Origin: a virus
Taxonomy: Duplodnaviria > Heunggongvirae > Uroviricota > Caudoviricetes
Direction: 5' to 3' (one strand)
DNA length: 6,942 nucleotides
Virus record (IMG/VR): IMGVR_UViG_2541047435_000014
Part shown: piece by piece, positions 1 to 6,942 of the stretch
Layout: each line of letters begins with the position of its first letter
Position numbering within the stretch: position 1 is the first letter of the stretch
Notes under the pieces: model-generated
The model's input: the letters and a program-made list of their open reading frames with translations, nothing else
Database searches by the model: none
Told to the model about the DNA's origin: nothing
Program-made: the position numbers and the translations under genes

Positions 1-1946
1 ATATTCATGTCATTCTCCTGTTCTGCCTGTATCACTGCCCACTTCATCCAGCCCCTTAACATCCTGCCACGGCCCGTCACCAAACCTGACCTGCAAATGC
101 TGAAAAAAACCTGAACCCGTGTGGCATCTTTGGGGTCAAGAAAGGTCAGTCCGGTGATGAGTGCGCCATCTGTATCCGGGAACCAGCCATTGCTGTTTGT
201 CTCAATAATGTTTCCCGGCCCCAGACGGAACCGTATTTGCGTCTCCCCCGGGTCGCCCTTCGGCCCCTGAGGTCCGGTCGCCCCCACCGGGCCTGCCGCA
301 CCTGTTTCTCCTTTCGGTCCCTGTGGGCCTGCCGGGCCTGCCGCACCGGTATCTCCCTTTGGACCCTGTGGACCTGCATTTCCCGTCAGACCGGTCTCTC
401 CCCGCTCTCCCCTGTCACCTTTCGGCCCCTGCGGGCCTGCCGGACCAGCATCACCTGCCGGTCCCCGTTCGCCGGTTGCCCCGACAGGGCCGGTGTCACC
501 GCGCTCTCCCTTATCACCCTTCGGCCCAGCCGGACCTGCTGGCCCCGTGTCCCCTTTATCTCCTTTCGGACCGGGAACACCACCTCCTGCTGCAGCCTCT
601 TCTGCCTTTGTTTTCGCTTCATTTGCCACATCCATTGCCGCTTTCACCGCTTTCGGGGTGGCAGCCTTCGTTTCATCATCACTGTCCGTTGCGCTGCTTA
701 ACTGCACAATTCCCTTCTGTGCCGTCGTTGCATCAGCCACATTTGCAGCGCTGCCTGCCGGACCTGGCTCTCCACGAGGTCCCTGAGGTCCGGTCTCTCC
801 TCGTTCGCCTCTCGGACCTGCAGGACCAGGTTCACCTCGGGGGCCAGTCTCCCCACGCTCACCTCGTGCTCCCATCGGTCCCTGTGGTCCGGCTTCTCCT
901 CGTTCGCCTTTAGGACCTTGCGGGCCTGCAGGACCTCCCGGATCACCTTTCTCGCCTTTTGGCCCCATATCCCCCTGGTCCCCTTTAGGCCCCCGCTCTC
1001 CGGTATCCCCCTTCAGGCCTGGTATTCCCTGCGGTCCTCGCTCCCCCTGTTCGCCCTTCTCACCACGCGGACCAGCAGGCCCTACAGCCCCCTGAGCACC
1101 AACGTCACCACGCTCACCTTTCGGCCCTGCGGGCCCTTGAGGGCCCACTGGACCTGTTTCGCCTTTAGGACCGACATCCCCCTTCGGACCAGTTTCTCCC
1201 TGAGGCCCCCGGGGCCCCCGTGCATTCTCAGCCATACGTCTGGCCTCTTCAGCACTGACAGTGGCAGCCTCTGCCCGCTTAAGGATCTCTCCGGCGCTCT
1301 CCTGCGCCAGCCTGGCCTTTTCAGCATGCTGTCTGGCTTTTTCTGCATCAGCTCCGGCGGCTTTTTCAGACTCTCCGGCACGGGTCGAGCTTTCCTCTGC
1401 ATTCCCCGCTGCTGTGACTGCACGGGTCGCAGCCTCAGTGGCATCAGTCGCTTTTTGTCCGGCTTCAGCCGCCCTGCTGGTTGCCGTCTTTGCACTGTCA
1501 GATGCACTCTTCGCACTGGCTGCTGCACTTTCTTTTGACTGTGTGGCCTGAGTGTTTTTTGTCGCCGTGTCTTCATTCAGGCGACGAATAGTGGCAAGGT
1601 CATCAGCCACATTATTCTGTATCTGCCGGAAATCTGTCAGCAGTTCTCCGGGTATGCTAACCTCAACAAGACTGCGGCGTAACAGCATATTGAGCGTCAC
1701 CGTACTTTCGGTCCCCTCAATACGCACACGTCCGTAGACAGCAGTCTTCCCTTTCACCGTCACCGAAACCGCATACTCCCCCGGATCCATCGTCATTCCG
1801 TAATATCCACCTTCACGGGTCACTGCCGACGCACTGGTGCCGCTGAGCGCATCCGGTGAAACTGTCAGCGCCGTCAGGGTAATATTTGCTCCTGATATCG
1901 CCTCACCATCAGGAGATTTCAGCGTCCCCGAAACAACAACACTCAC
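1..1946 (-). CDS. Phage tail-fibre protein with collagen-like (Gly-X-Y) repeats; 3' end not closed in this frame (runs off the window edge, see frame break at 103-109)
   Basis: Minus-strand frame open from 1946 to the window edge; absent from the ORF track because there is no in-frame stop. GTG start at 1946-1944 overlaps the upstream TGA (GTGTGA), with SD GGAGGT 5 nt upstream. Translation begins [24 protein letters not shown], passes an Ala-rich segment, then [14 protein letters not shown]... Gly-X-Y repeats, a linker [34 protein letters not shown] resembling the phage tail-fibre repeat motif, a second Gly-X-Y block, and ends [48 protein letters not shown]. Confidence 0.85.
243..587 (-). repeat. 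Collagen-like Gly-X-Y tandem repeat block 2 inside the tail-fibre CDS (about 115 codons)
   Basis: Minus-strand translation [115 protein letters not shown]. Near-identical nucleotide sub-repeats such as CCGGGCCTGCCGCACC occur at about 287-302 and 333-348. Confidence 0.9.
753..1217 (-). repeat. Collagen-like Gly-X-Y tandem repeat block 1 inside the tail-fibre CDS (about 155 codons, one register interruption at GDPGGPAG)
   Basis: Manual translation of the minus strand gives [38 protein letters not shown]...[25 protein letters not shown], with Gly at every third residue. The GC-rich, Pro/Arg-rich plus-strand ORFs in the track are the antisense image of this block. Confidence 0.9.
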
Positions 1947-3156: not shown

Positions 3157-3601
3157 GCTGTTCAGTCTCCGCAACACGACGGCGAAATGCCTCACGCACC
3201 CGGATACGGAATGCCTCAGCCGTTTCTTTCGGGTCTTTGTGAATATCCAGCTCTTCTGCCTCACACAGCGTCGCCAGCCGTGCTGAGGTGAGCTTACTTA
3301 AATCCACCTCCTGCCCGTTAACAGAAACAACAAAACTGTTCTCCGCTTCTGCCAGCGCAGCAAGCACTCTTTCCTGCGCCTGCTGTGCCTGCCGCAACTG
3401 CTCATTCTGTTGTTGCTTTTTCAGAACATCATCAAGCTCTTCATGACGAACCCAGACATCCGGAAACCCCAGCAGTTGCCAGGCCATCGCGCTGTCAACA
3501 TGCACCGGCTCAAGACGTGGGAACAGCGTGCGACTTCCGGTAATGGTGTCCTTTTTCACGGGTTTTGGGCCGATATAGACAACGGCAATTTTCTCACTCA
3601 T
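3140..3601 (-). CDS. Hypothetical phage protein (about 153 aa) with a Gln/Ala-rich predicted coiled-coil segment
   Basis: Track ORF 3140..3628 (MRAFYPGNYMSEKIAVVYIGPKP...). The ATG at 3628 lies inside a GC-rich hairpin; the in-frame ATG at 3601-3599 (MSEKIAVVYIGPKPVKK...) follows a GGGGAA SD-like sequence just outside the hairpin and U-tract, so it is the preferred start. Central segment KKQQQNEQLRQAQQAQERVLAALAEAE. Confidence 0.7.
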   Translation of the reverse strand: MSEKIAVVYIGPKPVKKDTITGSRTLFPRLEPVHVDSAMAWQLLGFPDVWVRHEELDDVLKKQQQNEQLRQAQQAQERVLAALAEAENSFVVSVNGQEVDLSKLTSARLATLCEAEELDIHKDPKETAEAFRIRVREAFRRRVAETEQHGGTE

Positions 3602-3613
3602 ATAATTCCCCGG

Positions 3614-3637
3614 ATAAAAAGCCCGCATGACGCGGGC
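3614..3637 (-). terminator. Intrinsic-terminator-like hairpin plus U-tract between the 129-aa gene and the 153-aa gene (likely partial terminator or RNA-stabilising stem-loop)
   Basis: Minus-strand RNA GCCCGCGUCAUGCGGGC (6-bp GC stem 3621-3626/3632-3637, 5-nt loop) followed by UUUUUAU (3620-3614), directly upstream of the SD and ATG at 3601. Confidence 0.45.
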
Positions 3638-3650
3638 CGGAAGGTTTTAA

Positions 3651-4040
3651 TCAGTATCCCACCACGGTATAACGCAGCAGAACATTCAGGGTGCCGGTTG
3701 CAGCGGCAGTCTTAATGGTGACAGTAACCAGCTCCCCGTCACGCTGTGTGGTGTACGGCTCCACTGGCACATATCTGGCAAATTTTGCAGAAACAGCTTC
3801 GCTGTTATCGATGAGAGCATGCTCACCGGACTTAATGCTGACGGTTGCAGTACCCAGACCACCCGTTGAAACCAGTTGGAGTGAGTTGATACGGATGCCC
3901 ACTGGCAGTGAGAGAAGATGAATAACACTGTCCGCTTCCGCAGCATTCACCGTAAATACGCCTTCTGCCACCGACTCATTACCGTGCGTACCCGTATAGA
4001 CCCGTTCACTCAGTGACGGGGCAAGGATAGTCTTTGCCAT
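3651..4040 (-). CDS. Hypothetical small phage virion protein (129 aa), immediately downstream of the major capsid gene (possible decoration or head-associated protein)
   Basis: Track ORF MAKTILAPSLSERVYTGTHGNESVAEGVF...LLRYTVVGY. ATG at 4040 is preceded by SD AGGAG with a 9-nt spacer. Function is inferred from position only. Confidence 0.75.
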   Translation of the reverse strand: MAKTILAPSLSERVYTGTHGNESVAEGVFTVNAAEADSVIHLLSLPVGIRINSLQLVSTGGLGTATVSIKSGEHALIDNSEAVSAKFARYVPVEPYTTQRDGELVTVTIKTAAATGTLNVLLRYTVVGY

Positions 4041-5333: not shown

Positions 5334-6341
5334 TTACCCGAGCTTCTCCAGAAGCGCGTCTATTTCAGCATTCGTCATACCGCGCATAATCGCCTCTGCC
5401 TCTGAATGAGAAGCGCCAAGTAACCGTTCAAAATTATCACCGGTTCCGACGGAAGCCGTGGTGCCTAAATCTGACGGGGAAGCAGGTACTGCCTGCTCCT
5501 GTTCAGCGGTCTTCACTTTCTCTTCCGCCGTTTTCCGGATATCCGTTTTGTCTGCCTTGTTGTCAGCAGACGACTCACTGACTTCACCGAAAGCAACCTG
5601 CGTACGACGGGCCACTTCAGCGAAACGTTCAGTGAGCGTTTTGTCTTTCCATGCGGGGTCATTCTGGAGCTTCCCGTCGATGGATACAGCAACCGAGAAG
5701 CGATCTGGATCGGACTCCTGCCACGTTTTCAGCACCGGCACGGCATTCATCGCATCAAGAACCGGTGATAAATCCTCACCACCATTACCTTCTGCCTGCT
5801 GTGCTGATTGCTGAACACGGGACTGGAGATAGTTATTTTTACGGATGAGCGAAGCCACCGCGTCACCAATTTCCGGATACATCTCCCTGATACGGGCAAT
5901 CTGCTCATCAGAAATTTTTTCGTTTTCCGGTAACGGTGTGGGCTTCATACCGGCCTGGTGGATCTGAGACGTCAGCAGTTCCACCCTGCGTTTTTCTTCA
6001 GCTATCTGCCCACGAAGAAGTGCGGCTTCCTGTTCGGCCCGTTGCTTACCGGAACGTTCAGCCTCAAGGACTTCATAGGGAATGACGTGTTTACCGTCGC
6101 GGGTGAGCACCCCCTTCGCTTCCGGCTCCTTCACGTCCTGCGTCTGCTCCACACTGGCATCCGGCGTCGGTGCCACATTGTTATCGCCCGTCTGAGTCTG
6201 TGCTTCCTCATCCGCATGTTTTTCCGTGGTATCTTCCGTCACGACGTCCTGTGCGTGACTGTCAATATCCACATCCCCAAGTCCTTCCAGCATTTTTTCC
6301 AGTTGTTCCGGGGTTTCTTCACCCGTAAATTCAAAATCCAT
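5334..6341 (-). CDS. Phage scaffolding protein (335 aa, highly acidic, predicted coiled-coil)
   Basis: Track ORF MDFEFTGEETPEQLEKMLEGLGDVDIDSHAQDVVTEDTTEKHADEEAQ... is rich in Glu/Asp/Ala/Gln with heptad-like segments (RAEQEAALLRGQIAEEKRRVELLTSQI). SD GGAG is 8 nt before ATG 6341, and the gene lies immediately upstream of the capsid gene, the typical scaffold position. Confidence 0.75.
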   Translation of the reverse strand: MDFEFTGEETPEQLEKMLEGLGDVDIDSHAQDVVTEDTTEKHADEEAQTQTGDNNVAPTPDASVEQTQDVKEPEAKGVLTRDGKHVIPYEVLEAERSGKQRAEQEAALLRGQIAEEKRRVELLTSQIHQAGMKPTPLPENEKISDEQIARIREMYPEIGDAVASLIRKNNYLQSRVQQSAQQAEGNGGEDLSPVLDAMNAVPVLKTWQESDPDRFSVAVSIDGKLQNDPAWKDKTLTERFAEVARRTQVAFGEVSESSADNKADKTDIRKTAEEKVKTAEQEQAVPASPSDLGTTASVGTGDNFERLLGASHSEAEAIMRGMTNAEIDALLEKLG

Positions 6342-6592: not shown

Positions 6593-6942
6593 GTAAGCGT
6601 ACAGCGAGGGCCGTATTGACGGGGATGTGTTATTCAGCTGGCAGTGCTATGCGCCACGGAAGCAGTTCGCTGACCCGGTTGACCGGCCAGTCTGCTATGA
6701 CGCCAAGCACATGGCGAAGGTAGCTTTCTGGATCCACGTCATTCAGTTTGCACGTCCCGATCAGGCTGTACAGTAGCGCTCCCCGCTCACCACCATGATC
6801 AGAGCCGAAGAACAGGAAGTTTTTACGACCCAGACTGACCGCCCGCAGGGCATTTTCAGCGATGTTGTTGTCGATTTCCACCCAGCCATCGTTCGCATAG
6901 TACGTCAGTGCCGGCCACTGGTTAAGTGCGTACGCGAACGCC
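6593..6942 (-). mobile_element. Terminal part of an IS66-family insertion sequence (element continues beyond the right window edge)
   Basis: The plus strand reads GTAAGCGTACAGCGAGGGCCGTATTGAC from 6593; IS66-family termini characteristically begin GTAA. It lies 34 nt outside the stop of an IS66-type transposase C-terminus, with composition changing at the junction. The exact boundary is plus or minus a few bp, and the other end and 8-bp target duplication are outside the window. Confidence 0.6.
6630..6942 (-). CDS. IS66-family transposase (TnpC-like), C-terminal fragment; 5' end beyond the window
   Basis: The minus-strand frame is open from the window edge to TAA at 6632-6630 and translates [103 protein letters not shown]. 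This matches the conserved C-terminal region of IS66-family transposases (LGRKN-[FWY]-LF-GSD-GGER...LPW). The track lists only the GTG-initiated tail 6630..6881. Confidence 0.85.

Follow-up and report, generated by a model that had tools for sequence, protein, structure and literature searches.

The window, meaning the whole stretch of 6,942 nt that was analysed, belongs to a 933W/Sp5-type short-tailed Stx prophage of E. coli. Its late region is nearly identical to, and syntenic with, the late regions of 933W and CEC03102. Across the 6,942 nt it differs from CEC03102 at three places: a base is missing at 110/109, and there are substitutions at 191 and 58. All three fall within the multi-copy 3' end of the tail-fibre gene. 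This 3' part is present at about ten copies per EHEC genome; the N-terminal half of the fibre gene, above about 700, is unique sequence. The portal gene carries an ISEc8 insertion, by which the prophage is already inactivated and which is shared by the lineage of CEC03102, CEC08123 and NCCP 14541.

The tail-fibre gene is the homologue of 933W L0121 and Sp5 ORF67, the fibre of short-tailed Stx phages, and lies where it does in their late region, between the DUF6682/adaptor gene and ORF68. The ORF begins with a GTG at 1946-1944, and its protein equals L0121 through residue 612, with N586 (H in 933W) as the sole exception. Pfam finds phage_tail_N/CarboxypepD_reg (PF08400/PF13620), five stretches of Collagen (PF01391), Phage_fiber_2 (PF03406) and Phage_fiber_C (PfC, PF06820). 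The EPclB-type architecture is thus present (PfN-like, coiled coil, collagen, Phage_fiber_2, collagen, Phage_fiber_C), with PF06820 matched at only 46/64 positions as written. ORF67 is an essential tail fibre, as determined by deletion and immuno-EM (PMC5155283), and PfC is a trimerisation module (PMC3368898). The features of the locus are listed in the table.

Features at the 3' end of the fibre gene (positions in the window; all on the minus strand)
Feature	Position	Strand	Basis or remark
Tail-fibre gene, homologue of 933W L0121 / Sp5 ORF67 (ECs1228), EPclB-type, collagen-like	1..1946	-	sequence comparison, Pfam
PfC part kept in the as-written frame, PF06820 profile positions 1-46 of 64	99..236	-	Pfam
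A; C in 933W and CEC03102 (N586 vs H586); A common in paralogous fibre copies	191	-	comparison
GG run, GGG in nearest relatives; most parsimonious site of the missing base	110..111	-	comparison, junction census
T7 tract (A7 on the plus strand)	103..109	-	length same in 933W, VT2-Sakai and CEC03102
T_TTT_TTC, formal in-frame X_XXY_YYZ heptamer	102..108	-	as-written frame
Last 18 PfC positions, readable in the -1 frame only	46..98	-	translation, Pfam
T; C in 933W and CEC03102 (synonymous, Val); T common in paralogous fibre copies	58	-	comparison
TGA, normal fibre stop in the restored frame, the end of L0121	10..12	-	translation
ATG of the next gene, Sp5 ORF68 homologue (89-aa core of 933W L0122), stand-alone PfC	6..8	-	synteny, Pfam

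The fibre frame is broken at the junction of the G and T runs. On the minus strand, 110-102 reads GTT TTT TTC in the frame of the GTG-1946 ORF. The uninterrupted 645-aa frame that should end in ...GSDTGRTGE is gone after residue 615; as written, the ORF continues across the ATG at 8-6, in frame with it, and runs off the end of the window without a stop. The junction is 9 nt long (G2T7) and that of intact copies 10 nt, and because this one base is missing, residues 616 onward are out of frame and PfC is cut at 46/64. PF06820 matches residues 571-616 of the as-written protein with 71 bits, against residues 571-634 of intact L0121 with 64/64 positions and 120 bits. The domain is complete (64/64) solely in the frame of the intact homologues. 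An earlier note, made from the letters alone, had placed here an A7/T7 tract, the heptamer, two alternative frames, a TGA at 12-10 and an ATG at 8-6, and its coordinates and readings are all correct. It had also suggested that an intact fibre frame is broken at this point, which agrees with the 124 of 126 IMG/VR loci that keep the frame and with the full PF06820 found only in that frame. The ending in the -1 frame, which it likened to a fibre C-terminus, is indeed carried in a single frame by intact homologues (...TGRTGE).

The junction has a length of 10 nt at 124 of the 126 IMG/VR loci (G3T7 at 89, G4T6 at 23, G2T8 at 7, others at 5) and is off-frame at the other two. Paralogues do not conserve the T run: T3, T5, T6, T7 and T8 all occur across the loci, and G4T6, G5T5 or GGGGCTGTTT can stand in place of the run. 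The six in-frame protein clusters whose sequences were read (P0041, P0048, P0050, P0054, P0072 and P0079; about 6,000 member sequences) all have the standard single-frame ending. The allele of the window is private to this sequence. Its exact 38-nt pattern has no match in IMG/VR, in JGI metagenome contigs or in GTDB species-representative genomes, and an exact 81-nt sequence from the window has none at 6,037 places across 5,426 complete E. coli genomes, nor among 293 phage records; the best matches among those listed in the 81-nt searches are all one base longer. A 147-mer repaired to G3T7 matches O157:H7 genomes at 100%. A megablast search of complete E. coli genomes is uninformative: the 39-nt query (G3T7), which served as positive control, matched no more than the 38-nt one (G2T7), and the probable cause is low-complexity masking or the word size.

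The lost base is most simply read as a G. T7 is the normal tract length in the closest relatives, and therefore the missing base would most simply belong to the G run. The paralogues that have the exact flanks of the window point the same way: with the nearest relatives, they are G3T7 (five paralogues), G4T6 (two) or GGGGCTTTTT (one), and never G2T8. The suggestion of the earlier note that the tract is one T short is thus probably wrong, since the closest relatives have GGG followed by T7 and the window has GG followed by T7. It is possible, but unlikely, that a G2T8 ancestor lost one T as its T tract contracted. As a natural allele that keeps the frame, G2T8 occurs at 7 of 126 loci, and the protein that the earlier note had predicted for the repaired gene (VQVFFQHL...) exists as such in P0041, with 308 member sequences. 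One G2T8 locus, L092, shares T58 and T3 with the window, and the other off-frame alleles look like T-run contractions of common 10-nt junctions (G3T6, G4T5 and G3T5). A T8 run is also more prone to slippage than G3. Against this, the closest relatives across the 6.9 kb are G3T7, and the route needs one extra event because no G2T8 locus has the flanks of the window: position 191 is C in L092, and position 136 is different in L090 and L093. A G2T8 paralogue as the donor of the entire 58-191 patch was rejected for the same mismatch of flanks.

ORF68 encodes an 89-aa protein that is a PfC domain alone, with PF06820 spanning all 64 of 64 positions. The loss at the junction deprives the fibre of the last 18 of the 64 positions of PfC, its C-terminal domain for trimerisation and the tip, and shifts the ribosome into the reading frame of ORF68. 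Because the ribosome enters that frame, the product as written is predicted to consist of the fibre, 31 out-of-frame residues and ORF68. The window ends 6 nt into ORF68, so the fusion is a prediction, which would come to about 735 aa with downstream DNA like that of CEC03102. Fusions of this kind are also found in a few further public sequences (P0001, P0002 and P0014), so the fused state does recur, though at low frequency. The normal frame would be regained only by an adventitious fraction of ribosomes at U_UUU_UUC, or in a fraction of the transcripts, by RNA polymerase slippage on U7. Selection that holds the +1 frame open into ORF68 was considered and rejected, since the frame stays open in 42% of cases when the last 36 codons are resampled synonymously. 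The +1 frame of the fibre gene has long open stretches regardless, and its openness is expected by chance (P about 0.3-0.42).

The most probable reading, at roughly 0.92, is a non-programmed loss of a single base in the fibre gene, either an artefact or a real mutation. One base is missing where the G and T runs meet, some 100 nt ahead of the fibre stop, and the loss would be a plain frameshift in the DNA or in the record, not a recoding signal. The deletion lies inside a 134-nt patch (58-191) that also holds two paralogue-type SNPs. There is about an even chance that it originated as an assembly, polishing or sequencing error. Residual assembly errors are expected in multi-copy regions, precisely where the missing base and the two SNPs are found, and both the mosaic and the deletion are private to this record. 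A real slippage deletion, arising with or after a short gene-conversion patch from a paralogous copy, is quite possible at somewhat less than even odds; the fibre gene would then be a fusion allele or a pseudogene of a decaying Stx prophage that ISEc8 has disrupted. Because ISEc8 disrupts the portal gene, selection on the virion genes would be relaxed. At both 191 and 58 the SNP corresponds exactly to a variant of the paralogues, as gene conversion among about ten copies predicts. The other 12 homopolymer runs of at least 6 bases in the window agree with CEC03102, and the remaining 6.8 kb show no further homopolymer error, which argues that the record is not generally error-ridden and is still compatible with errors confined to repeats. 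A real mutation, however, needs two events, conversion and deletion, within one 134-nt patch.

Mechanisms that would make use of the junction fare much worse. The earlier note had offered programmed -1 frameshifting at U_UUU_UUC as one explanation, by which the gene would give two fibre C-termini, the standard PfC ending and a fibre-ORF68 fusion. A slippery X_XXY_YYZ heptamer does lie in the zero frame (T_TTT_TTC at 108-102), both frames are open to sensible ends, and ORF68 offers a second PfC domain. The motif U_UU.U_UU.C is among those found to be shift-prone in E. coli by Sharma 2014, at more than 0.10% without a stimulator (PMC4066793), and since it is genuinely shift-prone, low-level correction of the frame is possible. 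Chance could account for the motif as such: seven in-frame X_XXY_YYZ heptamers occur within the fibre ORF alone, and the window has three homopolymer runs of at least 7 bases. In this register T_TTT_TTC exists only through the deletion, and in this one sequence only; intact G3T7 copies read GGT TTT TTT, i.e. U_UUU_UUU. The standard ending is encoded without a shift in all intact homologues, so that with 124 of 126 loci in a single frame neither the two-frame layout nor the slippery site is conserved. The substitution of the T run among paralogues and the chance expectation for the open +1 frame also count against a programmed site, as does the truncated PfC that the zero-frame product would have. 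The earlier note had proposed a search for a hairpin or pseudoknot 3' of the heptamer. Folding of the 53 and 83 nt past it gave structures no better than those of shuffled sequences (z = -0.52 and +0.11), and an Rfam scan of the whole window found no family. Nor did Mondal et al. 2016 find a sequence that could bring about a programmed frameshift fusing ORF67 to ORF68, and ORF68 is non-essential (PMC5155283). Programmed frameshifting is therefore considered exceedingly unlikely.

It is very unlikely, too, that the G/T tract is a switch, either phase-variable by slipped-strand mutation or acting through transcriptional slippage, between the fibre's own PfC tip and the ORF68 tip. Six independent junction alleles of 8 or 9 nt occur in public data (the window, L118, L124, L127/P0014, L128/P0001 and P0002). 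In addition, E. coli genes contain fewer A7 and U7 runs than expected, which may be a result of slippage (PMC4066793). Off-frame alleles, however, make up only about 2 of the 126 loci, far from a frequent on/off polymorphism of tract length, and fusion proteins number about 7 member sequences vs about 6,000 in the six in-frame clusters that were read. The tract is short (T7 only) and conserved neither in length nor in composition, and the fusion retains a truncated first PfC and the 31-residue out-of-frame linker. The phase-variable allele envisaged by the earlier note does not agree with the distribution of the off-frame junctions, which are sporadic, with further homopolymer frameshifts adjoining two of the three that have readable neighbouring sequence. 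These are L127 (G4T5), which also has A7 changed to A5 in ORF68, and L124 (G3T6), in which ORF68 is frameshifted too; sequencing error is suggested for both copies because of these neighbouring frameshifts. The recurrent fusion alleles were for this reason, and for their great rarity, rejected as evidence of phase variation. Improbable as it is, a low-frequency slippage switch joining ORF67 to ORF68, by mutation, by RNA polymerase on U7 or by the ribosome at U_UUU_UUC/U, would swap the distal tip, which serves trimerisation and receptor binding. In that case the window would represent the fused state, with slippage restoring some standard fibre, and the switch would explain how ORF67 and ORF68 could be fused, an idea that Mondal et al. 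2016 weighed without finding a frameshift signal.

The single-base loss is an ordinary frameshift mutation or sequencing error and has little import beyond annotation hygiene. The fibre gene should be annotated as frameshifted, or its sequence corrected; neither a recoded gene nor a genuine fusion of the fibre with ORF68 should be entered in the annotation. A real deletion would add a further lesion to an Stx prophage that ISEc8 in the portal gene has already crippled, and would bear on the ability of the strain to release infectious Stx phage. The ORF67-ORF68 layout places a spare PfC tip domain one slip away from the fibre frame, a plausible substrate for tip exchange, but what was found speaks for chance and not for design.

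933W L0121 and Sp5 ORF67 share with the window gene the same synteny (scaffold and capsid genes, DUF6682 adaptor, fibre, ORF68) and the same domain order (PfN-like, coil, Col, Pf2, Col, PfC). Unlike them, the window gene is without one base of the G3T7 junction and misses the normal stop. As in 933W, the ATG of ORF68 lies one base past the fibre stop, and the as-written fibre frame is the frame of ORF68, which is also the frame that annotators used for the 129-aa L0122. In intact phages ORF68 is a separate, non-essential gene (PMC5155283), whereas the window predicts a C-terminal extension of the fibre.

The bacterial -1 sites of dnaX, IS3/IS911-type elements and phage lambda G/GT have in common with the window a shift-prone in-frame X_XXY_YYZ heptamer and an alternative frame that leads to a meaningful C-terminus. 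The window differs from them in having no stimulatory hairpin or pseudoknot and in a need for the shift that is conserved in none of its homologues. Its zero-frame product, moreover, is a damaged protein and not a functional short form. The window also resembles frameshift pseudogenes and sequencing errors at homopolymers in prophage genes. They show the same one-base change of length at a homopolymer junction, seen here in one private record, in a multi-copy region, and in a prophage with an IS insertion. The sporadic alleles elsewhere co-occur with further homopolymer indels in the same way. The window stands apart from this class only by the coincidence that the frame entered after the loss runs open into a gene for a paralogous domain.

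The window comes from a short-tailed Stx prophage of E. coli of the 933W/Sp5 type and covers late-region genes, which lie on the minus strand. The fibre ORF is homologous to 933W L0121 (= Sp5 ORF67 = ECs1228), and in Pfam it has a PfN-like N-terminus, collagen repeats, Phage_fiber_2 and Phage_fiber_C (PF06820, PfC). Ghosh et al. (PMC3368898) showed PfC to be a trimerisation module. ORF68, the next gene, encodes 89 aa consisting solely of a PfC domain (64/64 Pfam profile positions), and of the 126 loci examined, nearly all have a similar PfC-only gene downstream of the fibre. The portal gene is interrupted by ISEc8, and the prophage is therefore already defective. This insertion is common to CEC03102, CEC08123 and NCCP 14541; for other Stx prophages the alignment is confined to window 6592 and below.

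The window fibre carries a non-programmed single-base loss at a G/T junction near its 3' end, which truncates the PfC domain and leads the reading frame into ORF68. Compared with CEC03102 across the full 6,942 nt, the window has exactly three differences, of which this loss is one. The junction is CAG GGT TTT TTT CAG (G3T7, three G then seven T; Q-G-F-F-Q) in 933W, VT2-Sakai and CEC03102, and CAGGTTTTTTTCAG (G2T7) in the window. Since these relatives are G3T7, the alignment makes T7 the normal tract length and the missing base, formally, a G.

Features of the window and its differences from CEC03102
Feature	Position	Strand	Remark
ISEc8 (IS66-family) end	6593-6942		Inserted in phage portal gene; right window edge
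Fibre ORF start GTG	1946	minus	From ORF reading
A for C	191		vs CEC03102
One base missing	110/109		vs CEC03102
T for C	58		vs CEC03102
GTT TTT TTC	110-102	minus	In frame of long fibre ORF
A7/T7 tract	103-109	minus (T)	From minus-strand reading of 1-600
Heptamer T_TTT_TTC	108-102	minus	Formal X_XXY_YYZ
TGA ending -1 frame	12-10	minus	One base ahead of ORF68 ATG
ORF68 start ATG	8-6	minus	Read through in frame by as-written fibre

The minus strand of 1-600 was read and all three minus frames were translated, which confirmed every position in the earlier note for the T tract, GTT TTT TTC, the TGA and the ATG. The fibre frame as written has no stop within the window. PF06820 is complete in intact L0121 (64/64 positions, 120 bits), and only positions 1-46 are covered in the window fibre as written (71 bits). 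The six protein clusters read (about 6,000 member sequences) all share the ending ...VQ(G/V)(F/L)F(Q/R)HLQV(R/M)..., and none keeps the readthrough frame in its place. The protein VQVFFQHL..., predicted from an 8-T tract or a -1 slip, exists naturally as a G2T8 allele (cluster P0041, 308 member sequences). Together these show that the frame is indeed broken.

With the flanks fixed and the junction left free, an IMG/VR scan found 126 loci: G3T7 in 89, G4T6 in 23, G2T8 in seven, GGGGCTGTTT in three, and GGGGCTTTTT and G5T5 in one each (all 10 nt), plus single loci with G3T6 (9 nt) and G3T5 (8 nt). The frame is kept in 124. Among the paralogue junctions (window 102-111; L001-L126) the G/T boundary shifts by substitution at a constant 10 nt, and in the six 10-nt forms residue 613 is Gly or Val and residue 614 is Phe, Val or Leu. 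The exact 38-nt G2T7 pattern has no match in IMG/VR, JGI metagenome contigs or GTDB species-representative genomes; 5,426 complete E. coli genomes, with 6,037 places in all, lack the exact 81-nt window allele, and so do 293 phage records. All top matches listed for the window-allele query are one base longer. The original observation is confirmed.

Programmed -1 frameshifting, also proposed, finds no support. Sharma et al. (PMC4066793) list U_UU.U_UU.C, a shift-prone heptamer in E. coli, with the motifs whose stimulator-free frameshifting exceeds 0.10%. The motif on its own is unremarkable, since the fibre ORF alone has seven in-frame X_XXY_YYZ heptamers and the window three homopolymer runs of at least 7 bases. 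The heptamer is in this register solely through the deletion, the T run is not conserved among paralogues in the census, and no homologue requires a shift for the standard ending. As for the suggested 3' hairpin or pseudoknot, the folds of the 53 nt and 83 nt 3' of the heptamer are no more stable than those of shuffled sequence (z = -0.52 and +0.11), and an Rfam scan of the window returned nothing. Any product back in the normal frame would be an adventitious fraction at best.

The as-written frame is that of ORF68 and of the 129-aa L0122 annotated in 933W, so the window allele predicts a fibre-linker-ORF68 fusion of ~735 aa, completed from CEC03102 because the window stops 6 nt into ORF68. 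When the last 36 codons are resampled synonymously, the ORF68 frame stays open in 42% of cases, and its openness is therefore expected by chance. L0122 (933W locus 3274-3663; window ~127 to past the left edge) is in the +1 frame; its ATG lies 16 nt upstream of the T tract, and it shares 119 nt with the fibre. RefSeq has only the 89-aa ORF68 there, starting at the ATG that follows the fibre stop. The CEC03102 fibre (645 aa, L002 7997-9934 = window 1946-10) is uninterrupted. RefSeq/PGAP annotates it as two CDSs, an N-terminal one (7997-8194) marked 'pseudo, missing C-terminus' and another (8708-9934) called 'C-terminal domain'. This reads as an annotation quirk, not a lesion, since the protein matches 933W L0121 exactly.

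Fusion alleles proved only sporadic in a protein search with a query across the junction: P0001 (five member sequences; G3T6, 756-nt contig), P0002 (E. coli DEC4C; an IS66 transposase N-terminus joined to the fibre 3' end, with a G3T6-type fusion into ORF68) and P0014 (G4T5). The P0014 genome (L127; GCA_910593955.1, 5.52-Mb contig) combines at 1501-2416 G4T5, ORF68 A7 to A5 and a scrambled fibre N-terminus; several homopolymer indels at one locus suggest an error-prone assembly. ORF68 is frameshifted too in the G3T6 locus L124. Off-frame and fusion alleles as a switch were rejected, as the P0014 genome and L124 bear the signature of homopolymer sequencing error or random decay. In P0003, another odd fusion from public assemblies, a complete fibre PfC is joined to ORF68 via a shift just ahead of the stop.

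The variants at 191 and 58 are common in paralogous fibre genes of lambdoid prophages. The fibre 3' region has a median of 10 copies per matching genome, and all three differences lie within 134 of 6,942 nt inside this multi-copy segment. With A at 191, residue 586 is Asn, against His in 933W; both are common among paralogues, e.g. P0050 (N) and P0054 (H). Paralogues with the window's exact flanks (195-112, 102-50) are G3T7 (five), G4T6 (two) or GGGGCTTTTT (one), never G2T8, and the repaired G3T7 147-mer has a 100% identity match in O157:H7 genomes. The shortest path would be for a G3T7 paralogue to donate the patch and for a single G to be lost. A G2T8 ancestor that lost one T is possible, and fibre locus L092 has the same T58 and T3 as the window, but it carries C at 191 and this route costs one extra event.

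Of the earlier explanations, a sequencing or assembly error and a genuine frameshifted allele both survive; that the T tract is one short is probably wrong, as it has the normal T7 of its relatives. We infer an artefact with a probability of about 0.5. Mosaic and deletion alike are peculiar to the window record, and residual or mis-polished errors cluster in multi-copy regions. A real conversion with a slippage deletion is a serious candidate, at somewhat below an even chance: selection on the fibre would be relaxed because ISEc8 is already in the portal gene, and the other 12 homopolymer runs of at least 6 bases in the window agree with CEC03102.

In Sp5, deletion and immuno-EM showed ORF67 to be the essential tail fibre, and ORF68 is non-essential; an ORF67-ORF68 fusion was considered, and a frameshift-inducing sequence was reported not found (Mondal et al., PMC5155283). 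The tail-fibre gene of these Stx phages is already well characterised.
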